Virus record (IMG/VR): IMGVR_UViG_2534681833_000010
Reading direction: 5' to 3' (one strand)
Length of the DNA: 47,819 bases
Source: a virus
Taxonomy: Duplodnaviria > Heunggongvirae > Uroviricota > Caudoviricetes
Under the pieces are notes generated by a model, which saw only the letters and a program-made list of their open reading frames with translations, was not told where the DNA came from and made no database searches. Positions within the stretch are counted from its first letter, which is position 1, and each line of letters begins with the position of its first letter. This document shows positions 4,255 through 47,819 of this stretch, piece after piece. The position numbers were made by a program, and so were the translations under genes.

Positions 4255-4481
4255 ATGCTAATTGGCTATGTACGCGTATCAACAAATGAACAAAACACTG
4301 CTTTACAACGAAATGCTCTTGAAAGCGCAGGATGTGAGCTAATTTTTGAGGACAAGGCGAGCGGCAAAAAGGCTGAACGACCAGAGTTAAAAAAATGCTT
4401 TTGAGAGGTGACACTCTGGTCGAATGAAAGTTAGATTGGCTTGGATGCAGTATGCGCTCGCTCTTGAAGCATGAACAGTAA
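4255..4481 (+). pseudogene. cin: decayed serine DNA invertase (Cin/Gin/Pin/Hin family) remnant
   Basis: Translation [49 protein letters not shown] then stop; homology to invertases continues out of frame ([25 protein letters not shown]) with an in-frame stop; catalytic N-terminal motif present, remainder deleted. Confidence 0.7.
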
Positions 4482-4547: not shown

Positions 4548-4697
4548 CTACGCCTCCGGGAACGCTGGCAAATTGACATCTGGTGCAGTGCTGGTATCCG
4601 TTGCGGTCACCGCATCGATATAATCCAGCACAGCGTTAAGACGGGTGGTTTCAGCCTGCGTAAGATTCCGCCCGGCCTGTAATTTCAGTTGAATAGA
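4548..4697 (-). pseudogene. tail fibre assembly protein (Tfa/U family) C-terminal domain fragment
   Basis: Open segment translating to ...LNAVLDYIDAVTATDTSTAPDVNLPAFPEA, resembling the conserved C-terminus of lambda Tfa (..[22 protein letters not shown]..); no start codon; different frame from the upstream 79-aa ORF. Confidence 0.45.
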
Positions 4698-4717
4698 CTA
4701 ATGGAGCCATTGCGGTA

Positions 4718-4957
4718 TCAATCAGCGACTGTTTTTTCTGTTTCAGCGTCAGCTACCAGTTCATCATGAGAACGTTCCGGAGTGGGTGGTGCAGTAAATC
4801 CCCCGTCTGAATACACCCAGCCGATTCCGGGCTGCTCACTGATATCAGAAATATTAATGAGCTGCTGATTATCCGGCACTGTGAATTCAGCCTCGCCATC
4901 CCAGACAATGACATTCACAACCATCCCATTTTCAATAACTGCATATGATGTATTCAT
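4718..4957 (-). CDS. hypothetical protein translationally coupled to tail fibre gene (possible Tfa N-terminal module)
   Basis: ATG overlaps the tail-fibre stop (TAATG); 79 aa from MNTSYAVIENG...; followed out of frame by the Tfa C-terminal fragment. Confidence 0.35.
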   Translation of the reverse strand: MNTSYAVIENGMVVNVIVWDGEAEFTVPDNQQLINISDISEQPGIGWVYSDGGFTAPPTPERSHDELVADAETEKTVAD

Positions 4958-6821
4958 TATGCAAACTCCTCGATAATACAAATCCCTGCAGCGCCTTTCC
5001 CGCCCGTCATACTGGTTCCGCTATAACCGGCATCGTATGCACCACCGCCGCCCGAACCATATGCCCGACCGATAACGCCACCGCCAGCGCCTGCGCGACC
5101 ACCGCCCCCCCAGAACGATGATCCTCCTTCACCACTGACGCTGATATTTCCGGACTGACCGTCTCCTCCATGCCCACCAATAATGCGGACATCACCAGTA
5201 TTCGGCGCGCCTCCATTACCACCGTTCGTGTTTGTGACTCCTACTTTCCCGCCGCCTTCACCGCCAGGGGCTATTACCGTTCCGAACGAGCTATCACCGC
5301 CCTTGAGGCCGTTCGTAGCACCAACACCGCCGCCCCCACCTGCGCCGATAGTGACAGGATAACTATCCTTCGTCAGGGTCAGCGTGACAATTACTGTCCC
5401 GCCGGCCCCACCGCCTGCACCGAAAAACGTTTCGTTATTGGATGTAGCCTGGCAGCCACCCCCTCCGCCACCGCCGCCCGTAATTGTGACCCTGATTCGT
5501 TTAGTTCCTGGTGTCGGGGTGTACGTACCTGATGAAGTGAAAATTCGAGTGTTTACAAGGCGTCCAACGTATCCACTTGCATCGCTCAGGCCAAGGTCAG
5601 CAGTAGTAGGTTTATTTTTAGTGTTATACGCTCTGCGCCATCCAGGTGAATAACTTGAGCCATTAGACACATAGATAAACTCCGCATTAGTGAGTGCACC
5701 AGTGACATTTGTCGTAGTGGCCGTTGTTATTCGAATGGTGTAATTGTTGGTATTATTGCTGAATACTTCTATCACAGCACCCGCCAGTGGAATAATGCCA
5801 CAACCAGTTTCACTGTCTGGTATGGATGCACTATTCGCATACGCCCATGCACAACGAGCGATCCATGCTTTCGTATTGAATGCCCCGTTATTTTGCAACA
5901 AAGTAACTAACTGGGCTGTCGTTATTGACTCACCGTTATTACCTGTTGTTAACCAACCAGTAGGAGATGCCGGGCAACCAATATTTGCTGGTGACAGTGA
6001 AATATTCGCAGAACCGTCAAATGAAACCCCATTAATGGTACGCGCTGTTTGCAATTTGGTAGCCGTAGCTGCATTACCGGTCGTGTTCTGGTTACCAGCA
6101 ATGTTTACACCCGGCAGGTTGATATTGGCGGAGCCATCGAATGACACGCCGCCGATTGTGCGGGCCGTCTGAAGTTTCGTTGCGGTTGCAGCATTACCAG
6201 TCGTGTTCTGGCTACCAGCAATATTCACGCCCGGCAGGTTGATATTGGCGGAGCCATCAAATGAAACGCCACCAATGGTTCTTGCCGTTTGTAATTTCGT
6301 GGCAGACGCCGCATTTCCTGTTGTGTTCTGGTTGCCCGTTGTATTTACGCCCGGTATGGAGTCTTTCGATGTATAGACCTGTGCCCACTCAGACCATGCC
6401 GCATCTGTGTTATCTCTTCTGGAGCGAATTAAGATAGGTGCATGAGCACCACTTGTAGCACTCCAGCCAATGAGTAACTCGCCTTCACCTCTTGATGTGG
6501 CTCCCTTCAGGTGAAGAATGTTCCCGTAAGCCGTAGGATAACCATTGTTGTACGCCTCATACATTTGCAACCCAGCTGCATCGCCTTGCGTTGTTCCGGT
6601 GAGCGCAGTAACACGTCCTCTGGACGTAATTGTTGGGATCGAAATGTCCGCAGAACCATCAAACTGAACACCATTGATGTTTCTCGCCTTTTGCAACTTC
6701 GTAGCCGTTGAAGCATTGCCGTTCAAACTACCATTGATGCCGCCAGTAACATCGAGCCCATTACCGATCGTAACAGTACCATTGGCATTGTTAATGATAA
6801 GCGGCCTTAAATTATTATAGG
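4957..6821 (-). pseudogene. tail fibre protein, distal (C-terminal) portion separated from the rest by IS2
   Basis: Reading frame continues across the IS2 target duplication into the upstream portion (..NSLGTY|NNLRPLIINN..); contains about 31-aa tandem repeats (ATATKLQTARTIGGVSFDGSANINLPGVNIAG.QNTTGNA) and a poly-Gly/Gly-rich C-terminal domain (TITGGGGGGGGCQ..GAGGGAGG..). Confidence 0.75.
5986..6354 (-). repeat. in-frame tandem repeats (about 93 bp unit, nearly 4 copies) within tail fibre gene
   Basis: Near-identical nucleotide and peptide repeats; further copies in the N-terminal portion. Confidence 0.7.
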
Positions 6822-6912
6822 TAGACTGGCCCCCTGAATCTCCAGACAACCAATATCACTTATTTAAGTGATAGTCTTAATACTAGTTTTTAGACTAGTC
6901 ATTGGAGAGCAG

Positions 6913-7278
6913 ATGATTGATGTCTTAGGACCGGAGAAACGCAGACGGCGTACTACACAGGAAAAGATCGCTATTGTTCAGCAGAGTTTTGAACCGGGAA
7001 TGACAGTCTCCCTTGTTGCCCGGCAACACGGTGTGGCAGCCAGCCAGTTATTTCTCTGGCGCAAGCAATACCAGGAGGGAAGTCTTACTGCTGTGGCCGC
7101 AGGAGAACAGGTCGTTCCTGCCTCTGAACTTGCTGCCGCCATGAAGCAGATTAAAGAACTCCAGCGCCTGCTCGGCAAAAAAACGATGGAAAATGAACTC
7201 CTTAAAGAAGCCGTTGAATATGGGCGTGCAAAAAAGTGGATAGCGCACGCGCCCTTATTGCCCGGGGATGGGGAGTAA
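6913..7278 (+). CDS. insC: IS2 transposase OrfA (InsC)
   Basis: [41 protein letters not shown]... helix-turn-helix and leucine-zipper OrfA of IS3 family. Confidence 0.85.
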
Positions 7279-8141
7279 GCTTAGTCAGCCGTTGTCTCCG
7301 GGTGTCGCGTGCGCAGTTGCACGTCATTCTCAGACGAACCGATGACTGGAAAGATGGTCGCCGCAGCCGTCACTCAGATGATACGGATGTGCTTCTCCGT
7401 ATACACCATGTTATCGGAGAGCTGCCCACATATGGTTATCGTCGGGTATGGGCGCTGCTTCGCAGACAGGCCGAACTTGATGGTATGCCTGCGATCAATG
7501 CCAAACGTATTTACCGGATCATGCGCCAGAATGCGCTGTTGCTTGAGCGAAAACCCGCTGTACCGCCATCGAAACGGGCACATACCGGCAGAGTGGCTGT
7601 GAAAGAAAGTAATCAGCGATGGTGCTCTGACGGGTTCGAGTTCCGCTGTGATAACGGAGAAAAACTGCGAGTCACGTTCGCGCTGGACTGCTGTGACCGT
7701 GAGGCACTGCACTGGGCGGTCACTACGGGCGGCTTCAACAGTGAAACAGTACAGGACGTCATGCTGGGAGCGGTGGAACGCCGTTTCGGCAACGAGCTTC
7801 CGGCGTCTCCAGTAGAGTGGCTGACGGATAATGGTTCATGCTACCGGGCTAATGAAACACGGCAGTTTGCCCGGATGTTGGGGCTTGAACCGAAGAACAC
7901 GGCGGTGCGGAGTCCGGAGAGTAACGGCATAGCAGAGAGCTTCGTGAAAACGATAAAGCGTGACTACATCAGTGTCATGCCCAAACCAGACGGGTTAACG
8001 GCAGCAAAGAACCTTGCAGAGGCATTCGAGCATTATAACGAATGGCATCCGCATAGTGCACTGGGTTATCGCTCGCCACGGGAATATCTACGGCAGCAAG
8101 CCAGTAATGGGTTAAGTGATAACAGGTGTCTGGAAATATAG
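7236..8141 (+). CDS. insD: IS2 transposase OrfB (InsD; expressed as InsCD by -1 frameshift)
   Basis: 301-aa ORF with DDE integrase-type catalytic domain (..WCSDGFEF.., ..[11 protein letters not shown].., ..[11 protein letters not shown]..) overlapping insC. Confidence 0.85.
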
Positions 8142-8152
8142 GGGCAAATCCA

Positions 8153-10477
8153 ATAGGTTCCCAGGCTGTTACCCGAATTGGTCAACATGAAATATGTCTT
8201 TGAGCCATCGTTTCGGATAAAGAATCCGTAGCTTCCATAGGCAATGCGGAAACCATTTGCATATCTTGAAACGATCTCACCAGTAGCCGTTAAACCGCCG
8301 TTGAGATTTCCTCCGGTTATTGGTAATGCGCCGACATCCGTGGCGGTCGGTTTAATGTGCGAACTGTAAATAACATATACCGTTCCATCAGTAAGACCAG
8401 TTGGTTTATCTACTGTGTAATTTGGTGATGTATGAATCGTTACGCTGGCGTTACTGGTATAATCCCACTGGATATTTACACCCGTGGCGTAATTACCTAT
8501 TTCAACATAAACATCATAGGTATCACCGGATGTATTCACCCATGCAAAATTAGTAAATCCAACCGATGTCCGTCGCCATAACGCACCAGTAAGACCTTTT
8601 GGATTCCCATTTCCCGCACGAAGAACAAGTTCAGATATACCAGCCTGCATAGGGGAGTTAACATTATATCCAGAACTACCAATCAGGCTTATGTAAACTA
8701 CGGAACTTGCCTGTGGCATGGTTACAGTTGCCAGCTTGAACCATCCTGCACCACCAATAAAAGACATGGTTGTTGAGTTGATCGTGCCTATAGACCTTGG
8801 AGTTAGCTCAATGTTTTTAGAACCGTCAAACGACACCCCATTTATAGTTCTCGCGGTTTGTAACTTGGTCGCTGTAGCCGCGTTACCGGATGTATTCTGA
8901 TTCCCCGCAACGTTAACACCAGGTAAATTAATATTCGCAGTACCATCAAATGCCACACCGCCAATCGTGCGTGCTGTTTTCAATTTCGTCGCGGTGTCGG
9001 CGTTCCCTGTCAGCGCCCCGGTGATCCCACCGTTGAAAGTCTGGCGTGCACTCCATGTGTTAGCCGTGCTCAACAGGGGGATCTTTTCACCGCTGGTACC
9101 GATTTCTCTTAAACCAAGGTATTGGATAACAGCCAGTGTGCTTGTTTTAGCCAGGATATCGCGACCGACTGACGTTAAATCAGTCTGGGAAACAGTGTCT
9201 GTACCGGTAAAGTACGGCAATTTATTTGCGCCAGTCGTAAGGCCAGCGAGCGCTGTTAAAGTTGCATCAAGTGGCTGTTTCCCTGCCAGCGCATTTGTCA
9301 TTGTTGTCGCAAAGTTCGGGTCATTGCCAAGTGCTGCTGCAAGCTCATTCAGGGTATCAAGAGCTTCTGGTGATGAGCCGACCAATGCAGATATAGCAGC
9401 CCGTACGTAAGCAGTCGTAGCGATCTGCGTATTGTTTGTGCCCTGTGCAGCGGTAGGTGCAGTAGGGATACCCGTTAATGCAGGGCTTGCCAAAGGCGCT
9501 TTGAGAGCCAGGGCATTGTTGATAGTTGTGCTGAAATTCGGGTCGTTATTGATCGCAGCCGCAATTTCTTTCAACGTATCCAGTGCTCCAGGAGCACCAT
9601 TGATAAGTGCTGTTATAGCTGCCTTAACAAAGGCTGTGTTTGCGATCTGCGTGCTGTTTGTACTTTGCGCTGCCGTAGGCGCGGTTGGCGTTCCTGTAAG
9701 CTCTGGGCTTTCTATTGGCGCTTTGGTATCAGCCAGCTCTTTTACAGACTTAACGGCTTTAGGGGTAGCCGCCATTGTTTCGCTGTCGCTGTTAGTTGCG
9801 CTACTGAGCTGAACTAATCCCTTTTGTGTTGTGCTTGCATCCTGCGCCGTATACTTGCTTTTCGCCAGATCGTAGGCTTTTTTAACCGCCAGCGAACTTG
9901 CAGCGACATCACTTCTGGTACTGGTTACAGAGTCGGAAATTTCAATGCCTATCGTGAGATCGATGCGGTCGGATACATCTATCATTTCCTGAGTAATAGC
10001 AGATACGCCAGCAGGGATATTCACCGTACAAACAAGCAGTTCCCCATCTCCTAACTGATATGAATCGGTATAGGTTCTGGCAACAAATTCAGCCGCATGA
10101 ATATGTGACGCGGTATTAACCTGATAAGAATCTTCTCCAAGGAGGTATCTTCCCTTCAGCACAATTGCATATTTCTTACCTGCGCTAAGTGCAAGAGAAA
10201 TATCCTTACGCTGCTGAATAGTTACCTGGTAGAATTCACCAATATTCACTGACGCCGCGCCAGCGGTTTTATCACCATCCACTGAGGTGATTAACAGGTT
10301 CATCCCACCGCCAGGCTTCGGCAGGAAACCAGCATAAAATCCAGGGTCAACAATTCCCCTGAATTTTCGGTTTAGCGCGGCTGACAGATATGGTTCGTGG
10401 TATTGCACATCAGCCACCAGAGCCAACGACTCGGGTGATGGGTAAGTAACCGATGTAACAACTGTAACGTCATTCAT
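8153..10477 (-). pseudogene. tail fibre protein, N-terminal portion (IS2-interrupted)
   Basis: Start ATG at 10475-10477 with AAGGA 9 nt upstream (MNDVTVVTSVTYPSPESL...); two about 69-aa repeats (TAPTAAQ.TN.TQIA.TA.V.AAI.AL....P.ALDTL.E.AAA..NDPNF) and fibre-type repeats shared with the distal portion. Confidence 0.75.
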
Positions 10478-10488
10478 CAAGCATATCC

Positions 10489-10923
10489 TTATGCTGTAGT
10501 CGTGTTTATGGCCATAACTGCGGTATATGTTTTGCCCACATACAGCGAGTCTTCCTGGACACAAATAATGGCGATTGGCTTGTTCTCGTTATCCAGAACA
10601 ACCAGAGTGTTGAATGGGTAGTTTTTCCCTTCCTGCAACTGGCTTTGATCAAGGTCCATTCGGACAGTAATTATCCCGCCTGAGTAGGTTGGAACGAGGT
10701 CGATGGTGCAAAATTGACTTGTCAGTTCAGCCAGATCGAAAGCCTTTGGCAGTTCTCCAATCTCATAAGTACCATCTCCTTTCTTAGTAACCAGTGAACT
10801 GGTACCGAAAACGGCCTTACTGATTAAAAATCGAGAGCCTTTGTTAATGGACGATTCAGCGCGCCGCTGATAGTAATAGTCCAACAACTGACTCTTATAG
10901 AGGTTTGTTGAGACGTCAGACAT
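10489..10923 (-). CDS. tail-fibre-associated virion protein (P1 R-like by position)
   Basis: 144-aa ORF immediately upstream of the fibre gene in the same operon. Confidence 0.3.
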   Translation of the reverse strand: MSDVSTNLYKSQLLDYYYQRRAESSINKGSRFLISKAVFGTSSLVTKKGDGTYEIGELPKAFDLAELTSQFCTIDLVPTYSGGIITVRMDLDQSQLQEGKNYPFNTLVVLDNENKPIAIICVQEDSLYVGKTYTAVMAINTTTA

Positions 10924-11001
10924 GATTTTCCCTAATCAATGTTGTGAAGCCTCATTGTAAGAGAAGTAACTTGTCACCCCGCCCTACGGACGGGGTGATT
11001 G

Positions 11002-19559: not shown

Positions 19560-20099
19560 CTACCACCAACTGCTAGCTTTCTTCTCTCTAGCTTTTCCTT
19601 CGCTTTGCAGTAAATCTTTACTTCCTGTAGAAATATTTCTATTTGCATCAGCCTCAGACTGAATTACATCTGTCTTAGCTGCTCTCTCCTTCAACTCCTG
19701 CTCTATAAAATCGTTTTCTCGCTGGACACGAGCCGCTTTTGCTTGCAGTTCGAGTTTCATGCTTTCGAGTTGCAGCTTGCGAAGCTCATCCTCATAAGCT
19801 TGATCTCGCTTCTTGTCATTTGCTAGCTCGGCTTCTCGTTTCGCTCTACGTTCATTTTCTGCAGCAACACGCTGTTTTTCGCGTGCAGCAGCGGCAGATG
19901 CTGCTTTTTCTCTTCTAATACGTTCAGCTTGTGCTTGTTGGCGAATAAGTTCTTTTCTGGCATCCTCAGCTTGCTGCTCTTTAGCTCGCCCTTCATTTTC
20001 CGCTTGAGCAATAGCAGCAATTTGACTTTGCAACGAGTTAGCCAAGGCAGTGCCTACACTAAACGTAGAAAAGATTAGAAATAAAATAATTTTATTCAT
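19560..20099 (-). CDS. secreted coiled-coil protein (TolA-like Ala/Glu/Lys/Arg-rich repeats)
   Basis: N-terminal signal peptide MNKIILFLIFSTFSVGTALA then highly charged helical repeats (EQQAEDARKELIRQQAQAERIRREKAASAAAAREKQRVAAENERRAKREAEL); AT-rich codon usage. Confidence 0.5.
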   Translation of the reverse strand: MNKIILFLIFSTFSVGTALANSLQSQIAAIAQAENEGRAKEQQAEDARKELIRQQAQAERIRREKAASAAAAREKQRVAAENERRAKREAELANDKKRDQAYEDELRKLQLESMKLELQAKAARVQRENDFIEQELKERAAKTDVIQSEADANRNISTGSKDLLQSEGKAREKKASSWW

Positions 20100-20102
20100 A
20101 AA

Positions 20103-20615
20103 TTATTTCTTTTCTGGACAAGTAGCATTTGGCTGAATTCGAGTTTCATTATCTTTAGTTGAAATAAGCACAGCAAGCCCCGTTGTAAACTGGCATGCTT
20201 TACCAACTTGAGTTGAAGTGAACACCTTAGTTCCTTCTTTATAAGTCAGTGAAACACCTTCAACAATTGTTTTATCACTAACCAAAGAACCAGCCGCTGC
20301 ACCAAGAGCCGCACCACCAGTACCGCCAGCTACAGCACCCAGTGTCGATGTGCCTTTAACATTATAACCGGCAACGCCCCCAGCAACAGCTCCCAGTACC
20401 GCACCAAATGTCTGTGCCGCTTCTTTATTAGCTTTATTATCAACTTTCACTTTAGCTGGAAGCACAGAGATAATATTGACTGTCTTTGTTTCCTGCTTCG
20501 AATTCAATTGAGCGGTATCATAAACATCGGCAGCATAATCAGCACCGCTAGATTGACACCCAGAAAGAAGAATTGCAGATACAACAAGAGCGCATAAAGT
20601 ATACTTTTTAGACAT
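20103..20615 (-). CDS. glycine-zipper lipoprotein
   Basis: Lipobox LLSGC after hydrophobic signal (MSKKYTLCALVVSAILLSGC); Gly/Ala zipper (GAVLGAVAGGVAGY..GAVAGGTGGAALGAAAG); 3 nt upstream of the coiled-coil gene. Confidence 0.5.
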   Translation of the reverse strand: MSKKYTLCALVVSAILLSGCQSSGADYAADVYDTAQLNSKQETKTVNIISVLPAKVKVDNKANKEAAQTFGAVLGAVAGGVAGYNVKGTSTLGAVAGGTGGAALGAAAGSLVSDKTIVEGVSLTYKEGTKVFTSTQVGKACQFTTGLAVLISTKDNETRIQPNATCPEKK

Positions 20616-20905
20616 AAGAATCATCCCAGAAAAACAAAAACCGGCGAGAAGTTACCACAAGAACGGAAAGTAAACAAGAATACTCCCATTGACTTATATC
20701 AATTAATCAACTTTTTATAAGCTATCCCTAACTTATTGTGTATAGCTGAAAAGTCAGAGACAAGTTCACCATCTGCATTATTTCTTAAGTTAATAGTTTA
20801 TTGCTAACTTAATTTATGTATCGACTATTGATATCCATCTTAAAGTTACAATATCCATCTGCATTATTTTTCATCACAAATAATATATCTATTGCACGAC
20901 ACTAA

Positions 20906-23489: not shown

Positions 23490-24068
23490 ATGCTGGCTAA
23501 AGTCACTTTCCTGAGCTGTATAACGATGAGCGATTTTACTTTTTCTGGCTATGAATTGGCCTGCTTTGTAACACACTCCGGTCTATCCCGTAGCGCCGGG
23601 CATATCTTGTCGCAATGTGCAAATCTCGCGGCAACAACCAGTGAATACTTCATTCACAAGCCTCACCGCCTGATCGCGGCAGAAACTGGTTATAGCCAAT
23701 CAACCGTCGTTCGTGCATTCCGTGAAGCTGTAAACAAAGGAATCCTGTCTGTAGAGATTGTTATCGGCGATCACCGTGAACGTCGCGCTAACCTGTACCG
23801 GTTTACACCATCCTTTTTGGCCTTCGCACAACAAGCCAAAAATGCGCTGATTGAAAGCAAATTAAAGATCTCTTCAGCGGCAACCAAGGTTAAAGCTGTT
23901 CTCGCTAAGACATTGGCTTTATTTAATTTTTTATCCACACCCCCATGTCAAAATGATACCCCCTCCCCCTGTCAGGATGACGTGGCAATAAAGAATAAGA
24001 AGTCACAAGTTAAAAAACAAAAAGATCAGTTTCCGGCGGTGCCGGAACGACCAGACTCAAAAAATTGA
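23490..24068 (+). pseudogene. repL: RepL-like lytic replicon protein, N-terminal part ending at an apparent frameshift
   Basis: ORF downstream of kilA; ends in a Lys-rich tail at an A5 run; reading continues in the +1 frame with no start codon or RBS. Confidence 0.45.
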
Positions 24069-24334
24069 CTTCATGGATCGCTGAGGCAAAAGCAAAGGCT
24101 GACAATCTGCGGTTATCCAAAAAACGCGCTCAAAAACATGAGTTCAAGCAGAAAGTAGAGGCGGCAGCGCGGAAATATGCTTACCTGAAGGACAAGCGTT
24201 CTCCTGATATTGGCGGGATATCAAACTTCGATAATCTGCCGCATTGCATGACGGTAAACGAAGCTCTTAATGCGGTTTTAGCCAAAAATAAAGATAACGA
24301 ACAATGGGGTATACCGGCAGGATTCAGAGGGTGA
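24066..24334 (+). pseudogene. repL: RepL-like C-terminal continuation in shifted frame
   Basis: 89 codons opening with TTG inside the overlap TTGA; combined length 281 aa matches recalled RepL size. Confidence 0.35.
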
Positions 24335-24967: not shown

Positions 24968-24989
24968 GAGACCTGGCGGGGAGAGATCC

Positions 24990-26328
24990 CATAAGCGCTA
25001 ACTTAAGGGTTGTGGTATTACGCCTGATATGATTTAACGTGCCGATGAATTACTCTCACGATAACTGGTCAGCAATTCTGGCCCATATTGGTAAGCCCGA
25101 AGAACTGGATACTTCGGCACGTAATGCCGGGGCTCTAACCCGCCGCCGCGAAATTCGTGATGCTGCAACTCTGCTACGTCTGGGGCTGGCTTACGGCCCC
25201 GGGGGGATGTCATTACGTGAAGTCACTGCATGGGCTCAGCTCCATGACGTTGCAACATTATCTGACGTGGCTCTCCTGAAGCGGCTGCGGAATGCCGCCG
25301 ACTGGTTTGGCATACTTGCCGCACAAACACTTGCTGTACGCGCCGCAGTTACGGGTTGTACAAGCGGAAAGAGATTGCGTCTTGTCGATGGAACAGCAAT
25401 CAGTGCGCCCGGGGGCGGCAGCGCTGAATGGCGACTACATATGGGATATGATCCTCATACCTGTCAGTTCACTGATTTTGAGCTAACCGACAGCAGAGAC
25501 GCTGAACGGCTGGACCGATTTGCGCAAACGGCAGACGAGATACGCATTGCTGACCGGGGATTCGGTTCGCGTCCCGAATGTATCCGCTCACTTGCTTTTG
25601 GAGAAGCTGATTATATCGTCCGGGTTCACTGGCGAGGATTGCGCTGGTTAACTGCAGAAGGAATGCGCTTTGACATGATGGGTTTTCTGCGCGGGCTGGA
25701 TTGCGGTAAGAACGGTGAAACCACTGTAATGATAGGCAATTCAGGTAATAAAAAAGCCGGAGCTCCCTTTCCGGCACGTCTCATTGCCGTATCACTTCCT
25801 CCCGAAAAAGCATTAATCAGTAAAACCCGACTGCTCAGCGAGAATCGTCGAAAAGGACGAGTAGTTCAGGCGGAAACGCTGGAAGCAGCGGGCCATGTGC
25901 TATTGCTAACATCATTACCGGAAGATGAATATTCAGCAGAGCAAGTGGCTGATTGTTACCGTCTGCGATGGCAAATTGAACTGGCTTTTAAGCGGCTCAA
26001 AAGTTTGCTGCACCTGGATGCTTTGCGTGCAAAGGAACCTGAACTCGCGAAAGCGTGGATATTTGCTAATCTACTCGCCGCATTTTTAATTGACGACATA
26101 ATCCAGCCATCGCTGGATTTCCCCCCCAGAAGTGCCGGATCCGAAAAGAAGAACTAACTCGTTGTGGAGAATAACAAAAATGGTCATCTGGAGCTTACAG
26201 GTGGCCATTCGTGGGACAGTATCCCTGACAGCCTACAAAACGCAATTGAAGAACGCGAGGCATCGTCTTAACGAGGCACCGAGGCGTCGCATTCTTCAGA
26301 TGGTTCAACCCTTAAGTTAGCGCTTATG
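24990..26328 (+). mobile_element. IS186 (IS4 family), complete, with 10-bp target duplication GGAGAGATCC
   Basis: Terminal inverted repeats CATAAGCGCTAACTTAAGGGTTG at both ends; direct repeats at 24980-24989 and 26329-26338; target is a GC-rich palindrome. Confidence 0.85.
25045..26157 (+). CDS. insL: IS186 transposase
   Basis: MNYSHDNWSAILAHIGKPEELDTSARNAGALTRRREIRD... recognised as IS186 transposase. Confidence 0.85.
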   Translation: MNYSHDNWSAILAHIGKPEELDTSARNAGALTRRREIRDAATLLRLGLAYGPGGMSLREVTAWAQLHDVATLSDVALLKRLRNAADWFGILAAQTLAVRAAVTGCTSGKRLRLVDGTAISAPGGGSAEWRLHMGYDPHTCQFTDFELTDSRDAERLDRFAQTADEIRIADRGFGSRPECIRSLAFGEADYIVRVHWRGLRWLTAEGMRFDMMGFLRGLDCGKNGETTVMIGNSGNKKAGAPFPARLIAVSLPPEKALISKTRLLSENRRKGRVVQAETLEAAGHVLLLTSLPEDEYSAEQVADCYRLRWQIELAFKRLKSLLHLDALRAKEPELAKAWIFANLLAAFLIDDIIQPSLDFPPRSAGSEKKN

Positions 26329-26390
26329 GGAGAGATCCCCGCCACTCTTCGTGTGTCAGGTATCCTCAATGCACCCTTTCCTCTCCAAAT

Positions 26391-34642: not shown

Positions 34643-35170
34643 TTAAGTCCGAAGCATAAACATTGCTTTCAGCAATTCACACTGAGCGCGGATCGCGTCC
34701 GGTTCATAGCCAGATATGGAGACATAAGCCACGTCCCTCATTCCTGCGTCATCTTTGAAAGTCACGATAGAAGTAACATCCAGCTCTTTTTCGAAAGAGC
34801 AAGCAGCATCTACTGGACGCTGAAGTAAATCATTCGACTTAATGCGCTCGAGAATCCCTCCCCACATATCATTTAGATATTCGATATGAGCCAAAACCTT
34901 ATCAAGACACTCTCGTGTAAACCATTCAGTATGCCCGCCACCTGCGCTTTTCTCCCACGGCGCATTCCAGGGGAAAAAGGTTGCGTGTAAAGCCCGCTCA
35001 AGATTAACCATTGCCAAACGCGTACCACGATAGACCCGTGAAAGCGCAAAATCGGGACTCACTTGTAGCCCTTTAAACCGTGCCAATGGACCACATGAAA
35101 TGCCGATTTTAAAAGTATCTCCGTTCTCCGGCACCAGAACGTAGAGGTAGTGTTGTTTCTCTTCTTGCAT
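34643..35170 (-). CDS. T5orf172 / GIY-YIG-superfamily domain protein
   Basis: YLYVLV..GDTFKIGIS...R........E....H.......EWF arrangement typical of T5orf172 (MUG113) domains. Confidence 0.45.
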   Translation of the reverse strand: MQEEKQHYLYVLVPENGDTFKIGISCGPLARFKGLQVSPDFALSRVYRGTRLAMVNLERALHATFFPWNAPWEKSAGGGHTEWFTRECLDKVLAHIEYLNDMWGGILERIKSNDLLQRPVDAACSFEKELDVTSIVTFKDDAGMRDVAYVSISGYEPDAIRAQCELLKAMFMLRT

Positions 35171-35462: not shown

Positions 35463-36404
35463 TTATGGATTGCGCTTATGGATCTGGAAGCCGATTTTCC
35501 TGCCGTTTTTTATCTCTGAAAATTTAAGATATTCAATAGCTTCCAAATCTTTCATAGCTTTTCTGATAACGCTATTTTGCACGCTAACGGATGATTTGAG
35601 ATTAAGCCTTGCTCTAAGGCGCTCAATGCTGACAGGTGCCGGGTTGGCGGGTAGAGCCTCAAAGAATGTATACAGCACCTTGGCCGTCTCTTTGCGCCCG
35701 AGCTTATCCAGCATCTTCAGCTTCAGGATTCGCTTATAGTCAACATAGTAAAGTTCAGATAGCTGTTTCTGCGGCTGGATCTCGATAACATCAAGCTCGG
35801 TATTCAGGCTGCTATATGCCAACAAGTTGACGTTAATGTTATTGAGATGACCTTTTGCCGCCGGGAAGCGGAATTTGACAACTGTCTGCTGAATGCGTGT
35901 CAGAGAGTCATCAATACTTTTACGGAACGCCTTTGAAAGGCGCTTACGTGGATAGCCGCATCGATCGGCAAACTCGGAGAATGGCAGGGTGATTATGCCG
36001 TCATCATCAGGTGCGTAGTCAAACAACGCGGAGGTTATGCCCACCCACACCTTAAAATCAGTATCCATATCCAGGCGTGGACCATGTATTTCAATTCCCT
36101 CATAGCCTTCCTGCTCAACAATTTTGAGGCTTGATAGTTCTTCGGTTGCGTTCGTTGTGTTTGTAGTAACTGACGATCCGCGACGTAGTGCCACATTGGT
36201 AGATTTTAAGGTTGGCACAAACACACCTAAGCGCAACAAAGCGATGGGTTGTATAGTGCTATTGTTATTGGGTTTCAGGCTGTGGATTTCTCCTGTATTT
36301 CCTGCAACTTCTTCAACGCTAAGGAAGCCTTTATTTTCTTCCGGCATCGTGGTTTCTCCATATGTGGCGCGGCCTGGCGTCATCTGGATTGCAGTTATCA
36401 ACAA
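35463..36404 (-). CDS. repA: iteron-binding replication initiator RepA
   Basis: Recalled RepA-family segments (QPIALLRLGVFVP, GPRLDMDTDFK, YTFFEALPANPAPVS); flanked by iteron arrays; true start may be the internal MPEENK. Confidence 0.7.
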   Translation of the reverse strand: MLITAIQMTPGRATYGETTMPEENKGFLSVEEVAGNTGEIHSLKPNNNSTIQPIALLRLGVFVPTLKSTNVALRRGSSVTTNTTNATEELSSLKIVEQEGYEGIEIHGPRLDMDTDFKVWVGITSALFDYAPDDDGIITLPFSEFADRCGYPRKRLSKAFRKSIDDSLTRIQQTVVKFRFPAAKGHLNNINVNLLAYSSLNTELDVIEIQPQKQLSELYYVDYKRILKLKMLDKLGRKETAKVLYTFFEALPANPAPVSIERLRARLNLKSSVSVQNSVIRKAMKDLEAIEYLKFSEIKNGRKIGFQIHKRNP

Positions 36405-46477: not shown

Positions 46478-47803
46478 TGAATCCCCTAATGATTTTGGTA
46501 AAAATCATTAAGTTAAGGTGGATACACATCTTGTCATATGATCAAATGGTTTCGCGAAAAATCAATAATCAGACAACAAGATGTGCGAACTCGATATTTT
46601 ACACGACTCTCTTTACCAATTCTGCCCCGAATTACACTTAAAACGACTCAACAGCTTAACGTTGGCTTGCCACGCATTACTTGACTGTAAAACTCTCACT
46701 CTTACCGAACTTGGCCGTAACCTGCCAACCAAAGCGAGAACAAAACATAACATCAAACGAATCGACCGATTGTTAGGTAATCGTCACCTCCACAAAGAGC
46801 GACTCGCTGTATACCGTTGGCATGCTAGCTTTATCTGTTCGGGCAATACGATGCCCATTGTACTTGTTGACTGGTCTGATATTCGTGAGCAAAAACGACT
46901 TATGGTATTGCGAGCTTCAGTCGCACTACACGGTCGTTCTGTTACTCTTTATGAGAAAGCGTTCCCGCTTTCAGAGCAATGTTCAAAGAAAGCTCATGAC
47001 CAATTTCTAGCCGACCTTGCGAGCATTCTACCGAGTAACACCACACCGCTCATTGTCAGTGATGCTGGCTTTAAAGTGCCATGGTATAAATCCGTTGAGA
47101 AGCTGGGTTGGTACTGGTTAAGTCGAGTAAGAGGAAAAGTACAATATGCAGACCTAGGAGCGGAAAACTGGAAACCTATCAGCAACTTACATGATATGTC
47201 ATCTAGTCACTCAAAGACTTTAGGCTATAAGAGGCTGACTAAAAGCAATCCAATCTCATGCCAAATTCTATTGTATAAATCTCGCTCTAAAGGCCGAAAA
47301 AATCAGCGCTCGACACGGACTCATTGTCACCACCCGTCACCTAAAATCTACTCAGCGTCGGCAAAGGAGCCATGGGTTCTAGCAACTAACTTACCTGTTG
47401 AAATTCGAACACCCAAACAACTTGTTAATATCTATTCGAAGCGAATGCAGATTGAAGAAACCTTCCGAGACTTGAAAAGTCCTGCCTACGGACTAGGCCT
47501 ACGCCATAGCCGAACGAGCAGCTCAGAGCGTTTTGATATCATGCTGCTAATCGCCCTGATGCTTCAACTAACATGTTGGCTTGCGGGCGTTCATGCTCAG
47601 AAACAAGGTTGGGACAAGCACTTCCAGGCTAACACAGTCAGAAATCGAAACGTACTCTCAACAGTTCGCTTAGGCATGGAAGTTTTGCGGCATTCTGGCT
47701 ACACAATAACAAGGGAAGACTTACTCGTGGCTGCAACCCTACTAGCTCAAAATTTATTCACACATGGTTACGCTTTGGGGGAAATTATGAGGGGATCTCT
47801 CAG
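46474..47803 (+). mobile_element. IS10 (Tn10-type, IS4 family)
   Basis: Outside end CTGATGAATCCCCTAATGATTTTGGTAAAAATCATTAAG at 46474; inside end ..GGGGATCTCTCAG ending 47803; no matching 9-bp target duplication. Confidence 0.85.
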
Positions 47804-47819
47804 TGCTCAGCATGTTTGA
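46581..47819 (+). CDS. IS10 transposase (C-terminus altered and extended to window end)
   Basis: MCELDILHDSLYQFCPELHLKRL... recognised as IS10 transposase; run of five G at 47776-47781 where four are recalled shifts the frame at the C-terminus (..GYALGEIMRGSLSAQHV). Confidence 0.8.
   Translation: MCELDILHDSLYQFCPELHLKRLNSLTLACHALLDCKTLTLTELGRNLPTKARTKHNIKRIDRLLGNRHLHKERLAVYRWHASFICSGNTMPIVLVDWSDIREQKRLMVLRASVALHGRSVTLYEKAFPLSEQCSKKAHDQFLADLASILPSNTTPLIVSDAGFKVPWYKSVEKLGWYWLSRVRGKVQYADLGAENWKPISNLHDMSSSHSKTLGYKRLTKSNPISCQILLYKSRSKGRKNQRSTRTHCHHPSPKIYSASAKEPWVLATNLPVEIRTPKQLVNIYSKRMQIEETFRDLKSPAYGLGLRHSRTSSSERFDIMLLIALMLQLTCWLAGVHAQKQGWDKHFQANTVRNRNVLSTVRLGMEVLRHSGYTITREDLLVAATLLAQNLFTHGYALGEIMRGSLSAQHV

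Follow-up and report, generated by a model that had tools for sequence, protein, structure and literature searches.

An apparently recent IS2 insertion splits the tail-fibre gene S of a P1-like phage-plasmid

The window analysed here, a 47,819-nucleotide stretch of viral DNA (IMG/VR record IMGVR_UViG_2534681833_000010), carries a complete copy of the insertion sequence IS2 within a long tail-fibre gene, dividing it into two parts. The account favoured here, to which a probability of roughly 0.9 is given, is that IS2 insertion broke gene S of a P1-like phage-plasmid, that the fibre was lost and that the element persists as a plasmid. The event itself is real and ordinary, and of a kind that is already known.

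Gene order and similarity place the window in a P1-like phage-plasmid (Punavirus), of which it covers the stretch from the end of tnpB beside ddrA through to ban. P1, P7 and RCS47 have about 97% nucleotide identity to it, around 40 P1 proteins were matched in order along its length, and searches with P1 proteins (tblastn) recovered the synteny 16-R-S-(U)-cin remnant-lydC. The parA and parB genes are 99.7% identical to those of P1 and RepA is only 41% identical, therefore the replicon type differs from that of P1; parA, parB and the rep gene are all intact. The preliminary description of this DNA did not recognise the P1-like phage-plasmid, gpS, or the dead cin/C-segment switch.

The interrupted gene is, on homology, the gpS tail-fibre homologue of this element, in a long and non-invertible variant. 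The proximal part of S (8066–10477, minus strand) is an 803-codon ORF comprising S residues 1–775 followed by 28 IS-encoded residues, with its stop codon (8066–8068) lying inside the right inverted repeat (IRR) of the IS, and the distal part (4957–6821, minus strand) encodes residues 776–1394, including a C-terminal glycine-rich domain. P1 gpS shares 94.6% identity with S residues 1–518 (tblastn with P1 proteins), and the other traits of a gpS-type gene are also present, namely the constant N-terminal part (Sc), the location downstream of R and the late promoter LPs, and the adjacent gene 16. Pfam models matched to the rebuilt protein were Phage_fiber_2 repeats, Gp34_trimer (residues 706–783) and Gly_rich_2 (residues 1203–1391). 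Homology to P1 gpS suggests that virions use the protein as their adsorption fibre. No gene of the element is larger than S, which makes up about 4% of it.

The organisation around S is similar to the R-S-U operon of P1 (NC_005856), in that LPs, R, the constant N-terminal part of S (94.6% over 518 aa) and cixR are conserved. Gene R (10489–10923, minus strand), with which the R-S-U late operon begins, has 98.6% identity to P1 gpR, and LPs (10954–10972, minus strand), the native source of transcription into S, retains the -22 box AAGTTACTT and the -10 TACAAT, with one spacer base differing and the rest conserved. Unlike in P1, however, the distal module of S is different and longer (1394 aa as opposed to 987 aa), with Gp34_trimer-like and glycine-rich domains, and the window has a single U-like gene, a stump of cin and no cixL. 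This U-like (tfa-like) tail-fibre assembly gene (4548–4957, minus strand) overlaps the S stop codon (TAATG) and is frameshifted by 1-bp indels at three places (near 4694, 4704 and 4741), all of them unique to the window. The relic cixR (9107–9126, plus strand) matches P1 cixR at 20 of 20 positions and sits at the boundary of the constant and variable parts of S; a second cix site was not found in the window with up to four mismatches allowed, nor was a U' homologue or a second Sv cassette. What remains of the cin invertase gene (4255–4466, plus strand) covers approximately 74 of the 186 P1 Cin residues (1–49 and 47–74), in two frames with stops, and in relatives cin is an annotated pseudogene. 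Because only a stump of cin and a single cix site remain, cixL being absent, the fibre tip cannot switch, and rescue of the fibre by inversion of the C-segment was rejected.

The inserted element (6822–8152, plus strand) is a full-length IS2 of the IS3 family, 1331 bp long, for which the length, the terminal repeats, the two-ORF frameshift layout and the 5-bp duplication were all found, along with identity matches and NCBIfam profile scores. Its termini, established by direct reading and by script, are TAGACTGGCCCCCTGAATCTCC on the left and GGAAATATAGGGGCAAATCCA on the right, and its terminal inverted repeats are imperfect, with the left repeat (IRL) beginning TAGACTGG and IRR ending AAATCCA. 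IRL forms the low-coordinate end and IRR the high-coordinate end, so that the transposase genes are on the plus strand, antisense to S. The first of these, orfA (6913–7278, plus strand; 121 aa), encodes the repressor TnpA/InsC and scored 276 bits against NCBIfam PRK09413 "IS2 repressor TnpA" (curated cut-off 229), and orfB (7236–8141, plus strand; 301 aa), the DDE transposase part, is uninterrupted and scored 710 bits against PRK09409 "IS2 transposase TnpB" (curated cut-off 597). The two overlap, with an A6G -1 frameshift window, AAAAAAG, at 7230–7236. Across all 1331 bp the element is 100% identical to annotated IS2 copies in several E. coli genomes; the chromosome of strain ETEC1731 has IS2 in 20 places, with at least one copy at 100% identity over the full length.

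IS2 generates target-site duplications of 5 bp, and direct reading and a script both placed a perfect ATAGG repeat on each side of the element, at 6817–6821 (left copy) and 8153–8157 (right copy); the chance of a 5-bp flanking repeat arising at random is about 1/1024. When 6822–8157 is deleted in silico, a single minus-strand frame is restored from the Met at 10477 to the stop at 4957–4959, with zero internal stops, giving an S protein of 1394 aa with the peptide NSGNSLGTYNNLRPLIINNANG over the join. The structure was therefore as the preliminary description had it, which reported a 1331-bp IS2 between perfect ATAGG repeats and a frame restored on removal of the IS and one repeat copy, and the junction peptide it quoted was matched exactly.

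Comparison with IS-free relatives, which had been proposed as a check, also agreed. Intact S alleles of 4185 nt with a single ATAGG are present in pIPCEC31_2, NCCP15734 and NIST0056; in pIPCEC31_2 this one ATAGG lies at the homologous site, and in an IS-free relative (locus L001) the single copy is at 9597–9601. The rebuilt S has 98.6% identity to the pIPCEC31_2 allele, with no indels. These intact alleles and the split frame support the earlier claim that a tail-fibre gene of around 1400 aa has been divided and its full-length product abolished. The insertion looks recent, as was also suggested before, because the IS2 matches other copies at 100% identity and both halves of S are undamaged apart from it, and a sister plasmid with a different lesion is consistent with this. 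The junction between IS2 and S was not found in 5,426 complete E. coli genomes, nor among the best-scoring 5,000 records of PLSDB (72,556 plasmid records).

The sister in question, plasmid unnamed6 of ETEC1731, differs from the window by 5 substitutions over about 40.6 kb and by four single-base indels. In its S locus an inverted, 100% identical IS2 replaces the region corresponding to window positions 5671–10187, with no duplication. Because the IS has the opposite orientation and sequence on both sides of it has been deleted, this structure cannot have come from that of the window in one step; reaching it would take two steps or more, whether the ancestor was intact or window-like, and descent may have run in either direction. 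Two plasmids only 5 substitutions apart with different IS2-linked lesions in S may suggest that loss of the fibre is favoured, either as S is a hot spot for IS2 or as its inactivation is selected in this plasmid lineage, and a known IS2 hot-target region in P1 is cited in a reference list. If true, this would mean that phage-plasmids can be converted rapidly and repeatably into non-infectious plasmids in IS2-rich porcine E. coli. However, the lesions need not be independent, since the ETEC1731 deletion spans the ATAGG site and could have arisen from a window-like ancestor. S is also the largest gene of the element (around 4%) in a host lineage that is rich in IS2, and the two plasmids are set apart by further events involving IS10, IS91 and IS186-type elements, as would fit a general flux of IS elements under relaxed selection. 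A selective benefit is likewise not obvious, because loss of the fibre would still not protect the host from lysis. That S is a preferred or selected target of IS2, with independent losses in the two sisters, is thus considered unlikely.

The structure in the window is best explained by a simple insertion. The source would be an active IS2, most likely a chromosomal copy of the host, which transposed into codons 774–775 of S and produced the usual 5-bp duplication. Transcription from LPs would still enter R and S, but translation would stop 28 codons into the IS, yielding, in place of a full-length fibre of about 145 kDa, an 803-aa stump of about 86 kDa that keeps the baseplate-proximal part and is without the distal 619 residues, the tip domain among them. 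For the distal part no start signal is available that could be used, and it would be preceded by 1.3 kb of antisense IS RNA that is not translated, where Rho-dependent polarity may be expected; for these two reasons little or no distal product is predicted. Any that was made would probably be unable to attach to the baseplate, and induced particles, being without functional fibres, should not adsorb. Given its intact parA, parB and rep gene, the element would still be able to persist as a plasmid. That the split gene could instead encode a functional two-piece fibre was rejected, because the IS lies inside the Gp34_trimer-like domain (residues 706–783) and truncates it, and because the distal piece is without translation start signals.

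The preliminary description had gone further in proposing that the distal fragment begins with an ATG inside the IS2 terminus at 6847–6849 and that outward transcription from the IS end could yield a receptor-binding fragment. The start codon was misread, as CAA on the plus strand is TTG on the coding strand. This TTG at 6849, inside IRL, is the first possible start of the distal fragment and lacks a Shine-Dalgarno sequence; an ATG in frame does not occur until 6564, which is 95 codons further on, and an in-frame TTG at 6570 is preceded by a Shine-Dalgarno-like sequence. The frame is nevertheless open from 6849 to 4957, which would allow a distal tip fragment of about 630 aa starting within the IS terminus, and a perfect TATAAT in the flank (6819–6814) is 19 nt from a weak -35-like TGGAGA (4/6 match) in IRL. 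Low-level transcription into the distal fragment from this pair may occur. Fusion promoters formed by IS2 are also documented elsewhere, at ampC (Jaurin and Normark, 1983) and in the activation of acrEF (reviewed in PMC9330008), and the window resembles these in that coding sequence lies directly against an IS2 end and a -10-like hexamer is available in the flank. In the known cases, however, IRR supplies the -35, which points in the direction of the transposase, whereas the fragment in the window adjoins IRL and reads the opposite way, and the only -35-like match there is weak and has a 19-nt spacer. In the literature, IS2 has its outward-facing -35 at the opposite end, in IRR, and PIRL, the promoter of IRL, transcribes inward (PMC9330008; PMC3299598). 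An IRR -35 placed 16–18 nt from a flank -10 and reading into the gene was not found at the distal S fragment, which adjoins IRL. In a strict promoter scan the number of hits did not exceed that in shuffled sequence, and no hit pointed outward from the IS end; under lenient settings, the strongest outward candidates were TTAAGA-17-GATATT (start at about 6845) and the junction hybrid TGGAGA-19-TATAAT (start at about 6807), and both would initiate downstream of the TTG at 6849. Without residues 1–775, among them the Sc part conserved with P1, the fragment would be unable to join the baseplate, and the downstream assembly gene is frameshifted in the window sequence. Taken together, this leaves the proposed outward transcription and receptor-binding fragment unsupported, and production of such a fragment from the IS2 end very improbable.

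That mis-joined, repeat-containing contigs placed IS2 into a gene that is really intact is scarcely credible, for although IS2 is multicopy in the lineage (up to 20 places in the chromosome of a related host), the window ends 16 nt past an IS10 and the four odd 1-bp indels relative to the near-identical plasmid hint at imperfect sequence, mis-joins do not yield an exact 5-bp duplication, complete IS ends and perfect restoration of the frame, the ATAGG duplicated here is single-copy in relatives, and the flanks on both sides are collinear with relatives for kilobases. The four indels do raise some doubt over the base-level accuracy of the assembly; the IS junctions are unaffected.

The closest known counterpart to the insertion of IS2 into S is on pSvP1, where IS2 lies in the sit gene of a P1-like element between 5-bp direct repeats of ACCAA (Venturini et al., 2019; PMC6906374). 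Both cases involve the same IS, the same plasmid family, a complete IS with 5-bp repeats and a late tail gene, and both elements retain part of cin, lack the C-segment and have an IS186-type element, with the repeat GGATCTCTCC, in place of rlfA, rlfB and pmgF. They differ in that the target is S in the window and sit in pSvP1, and the window junction was not found in the collections searched.

Beyond annotation, the significance of the insertion is small. This P1-like copy probably cannot make infectious particles and, where the spread of cargo is concerned, should be treated as a plasmid and not as a transducing phage. P1-like phage-plasmids have been described to decay into plain plasmids as genes are lost and transposases insert (Pfeifer and Rocha, 2024; PMC10879196), and the window is similar in that genes of the lytic cycle are damaged (S, with further lesions in ban and possibly in the tfa-like gene and repL), while the partition and replication genes are intact. 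The frameshifts in the tfa-like gene (4694–4741) and in repL (24011) may be sequencing errors. The element in the window differs in being at an early stage, with nearly all structural genes at full length. It offers a clean, datable case of IS-driven decay of a phage-plasmid, for which the near-identical ETEC1731 plasmid provides a paired comparison.

The preliminary description's main point, that a recently inserted IS2 interrupts a tail-fibre gene, is real and was rightly read, and the insertion is an ordinary insertional knock-out of the minus-strand gene S. Direct reading of 6700-8300 bore out a 1331 bp IS2 with a perfect 5-bp duplication, the element occupying 6822-8152 (left end TAGACTGGCCCCCTGAATCTCCAGAC..., right end ...GGAAATATAGGGGCAAATCCA) and being directly flanked by two copies of ATAGG at 6817-6821 and 8153-8157. 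Two minus-strand ORFs lie at the locus (4957-6849 and 8066-10564), and deletion of 6822-8157 fuses them with zero internal stops across the same join peptide that had been reported (...NSGNSLGTYNNLRPLIINNANG...). The rebuilt S comprises 1394 aa counted from the Met at 10477, with IS2 positioned after codon 775, within a Gp34_trimer-like domain. In NCBIfam the ORFs of the IS score as IS2 TnpA and IS2 TnpB, above the curated cut-offs. Its A6G frameshift window is intact (7230-7236), and over its whole length the element matches IS2 copies from several E. coli genomes at 100% identity.

Over its first 25 kb the window is ~97% identical to phages P1, P7, RCS47 and related phage-plasmids, and tblastn matches to annotated P1 proteins follow the P1 order from ddrA to ban. 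On sequence similarity the split gene is a homologue of P1 gene S, with 94.6% identity to gpS over residues 1-518, gene R (10489-10923) and the late promoter LPs (10954-10972) upstream, and a U-like assembly gene downstream. Past the constant part of S, the fibre diverges from that of P1, with Pfam matches to Phage_fiber_2 repeats, to a Gp34_trimer-like domain at residues 706-783 and, at the C-terminus, to a Gly_rich_2 domain (1203-1391). This 4185-nt allele is intact in pIPCEC31_2, strain NCCP 15734 and a plasmid of strain NIST0056. The comparison with an IS-free relative that had been proposed is provided by pIPCEC31_2, which has one ATAGG at the homologous position and whose fibre protein aligns with the rebuilt one at 98.6% identity and without indels.

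With IS2 in place, the proximal ORF stops at 8066-8068, giving a product of 803 aa that consists of S residues 1-775 and 28 residues from the antisense strand of the IS2 right end (IRR). No intrinsic terminator-like sites were found in 6500-8500 on either strand, so transcripts from LPs may run into IS2, where they would continue untranslated for >1.2 kb past the premature stop. Going by the general polarity of IS insertions in E. coli, such a stretch would be expected to provoke Rho-dependent termination.

The more speculative suggestion, that a distal fragment is expressed from a start codon and an outward promoter in the IS2 end, fails on the sequence itself. The proposed ATG at 6847-6849 is CAA on the plus strand and thus TTG on the coding strand; the distal frame begins with this TTG at 6849, 28 nt into the left end (IRL), no Shine-Dalgarno match is present in the preceding ...AAGTGATATTGG, and the earliest in-frame ATG is at 6564. 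As S is antisense to the transposase genes, the distal fragment adjoins IRL, just within which the resident promoter PIRL is directed into the element; Pjunc and fusion promoters are built from the outward-facing -35 located in IRR (PMC3299598, PMC9330008). In the window, IRR faces the proximal S fragment in the antisense direction. A strict consensus scan of 6500-8500 returned 2 promoter-like sites against 2.2 expected from shuffles, with 0 directed out of the IS end. A lenient scan gave two candidates. One, TTAAGA-17-GATATT (6880 to 6852), would start transcription near 6845; the other, TGGAGA-19-TATAAT (6844 to 6814), is a hybrid formed at the junction, with a perfect -10 that belongs to native S, and would start near 6807. 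Each start point is downstream of the TTG, which rules out expression of the proposed ORF from either candidate. Any shorter distal product would be without all 775 baseplate-proximal residues. The perfect TATAAT of the target site (CCTATAATAAT; 6814-6819, minus strand) directly abuts IRL; it belongs to native S and also occurs in IS-free relatives.

In P1, according to the record annotation, Cin-mediated inversion of the C-segment can swap the tip of S. The window keeps a perfect cixR site (9107-9126) but contains no second cix site, cin is left as fragments (~74 of 186 residues, with stops), and tblastn with P1 proteins found neither a U' gene nor an alternative Sv cassette in the window, so the IS-bearing distal part is the only tip of this element. 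Judged on this gene content, inversion cannot rescue the fibre.

That the insertion is recent is upheld by the perfect duplication, the identity of IS2 to other active copies, and the freedom of both S halves from stops and frameshifts. A search of 5,426 complete E. coli genomes did not turn up the IS2-S junction, nor was it present among the best-scoring 5,000 of 72,556 PLSDB records. Most informative is the comparison with unnamed6 (NZ_CP122822.1), a plasmid of the porcine strain ETEC1731. This plasmid runs collinear with the window for ~40.6 kb and differs there by only 5 substitutions and 4 single-base indels. At its S locus, an IS2 of 100% identity and reversed orientation stands in place of window 5671-10187 (4.5 kb of S); no target duplication accompanies it, the flanks being GACAC and GTGCA. 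The ETEC1731 chromosome matches this IS2 in 20 places, at least one at 100% over full length. In this lineage IS movement clearly outpaces point mutation. The ATAGG site was lost in the ETEC1731 deletion, so the two S lesions may or may not be independent.

Other genes of the element are also damaged. The U-like tail-fibre assembly gene (4548-4957, minus strand) has its frame shifted by three 1-bp indels, near 4694, 4704 and 4741 and all inside 48 bp. These indels are specific to the window: the frame is open in four relatives, among them the ETEC1731 sequence, which is otherwise identical. The lytic replication initiator gene repL (23490-24331) has A6 at ~24011, against A7 in P1 and ETEC1731, which shifts the frame after residue 178 of 281 and is the sole ETEC1731 difference across 851 bp. 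These four indels are suspect, being almost as many as the 5 substitutions and including a cluster of three; sequencing error, and not mutation, may account for them. Within 45560-47819, the DnaB-like helicase gene ban, intact in the ETEC1731 plasmid, is interrupted at codon 305 of 454 by IS10 (46475 to ~47803), 16 nt past the end of which the window ends; no matching 9-bp repeat surrounds this IS10 (sides TACAGAGCT and TGCTCAGCA), so it is not a simple insertion in ban. The remaining P1-homologous genes are all full length and in one frame, with no damage to parA, parB or the plasmid rep gene.

This kind of event is already known, IS2 with 5-bp repeats having been described in a late tail gene of the P1-like plasmid pSvP1 (sit::IS2; PMC6906374). 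Both pSvP1 and the window have a partial cin, no C-segment and an IS186-type element with the repeat GGATCTCTCC. P1-like phage-plasmids are also documented to decay to plain plasmids via gene loss and transposase insertion (PMC10879196). The IS186/IS421-type element of the window (24974-26344, ORF 25039-26157) lies between 10-bp repeats (GGAGAGATCC), a repeat also reported for IS186B in pSvP1. It occupies the place of rlfA, rlfB and pmgF of P1, and its orientation is opposite to that in the ETEC1731 plasmid.

The plasmid replication protein (35463-36404), adjoined by a GIY-YIG nuclease gene (34643-35170), is assigned to the RepB family in the sister-plasmid annotation and is only 41% identical to P1 RepA, so the replicon type is not that of P1, though parA/parB are 99.7% identical. 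The window begins within the 3' end of an InsQ/TnpB gene (1-97; IS200/IS605-family, IS609-like), whose place in the ETEC1731 plasmid is between ddrB and ddrA; upfB of that plasmid also holds an IS91, absent from the window. Other genes stand where P1 has simABC and tciABC (19560-20624 and 43345-45171), encoding a DUF5384 protein, a hypothetical protein, an SPFH-domain protein and a 'crAss001_48 related' ORF, the last of which (43431-43844) divides the upl region.
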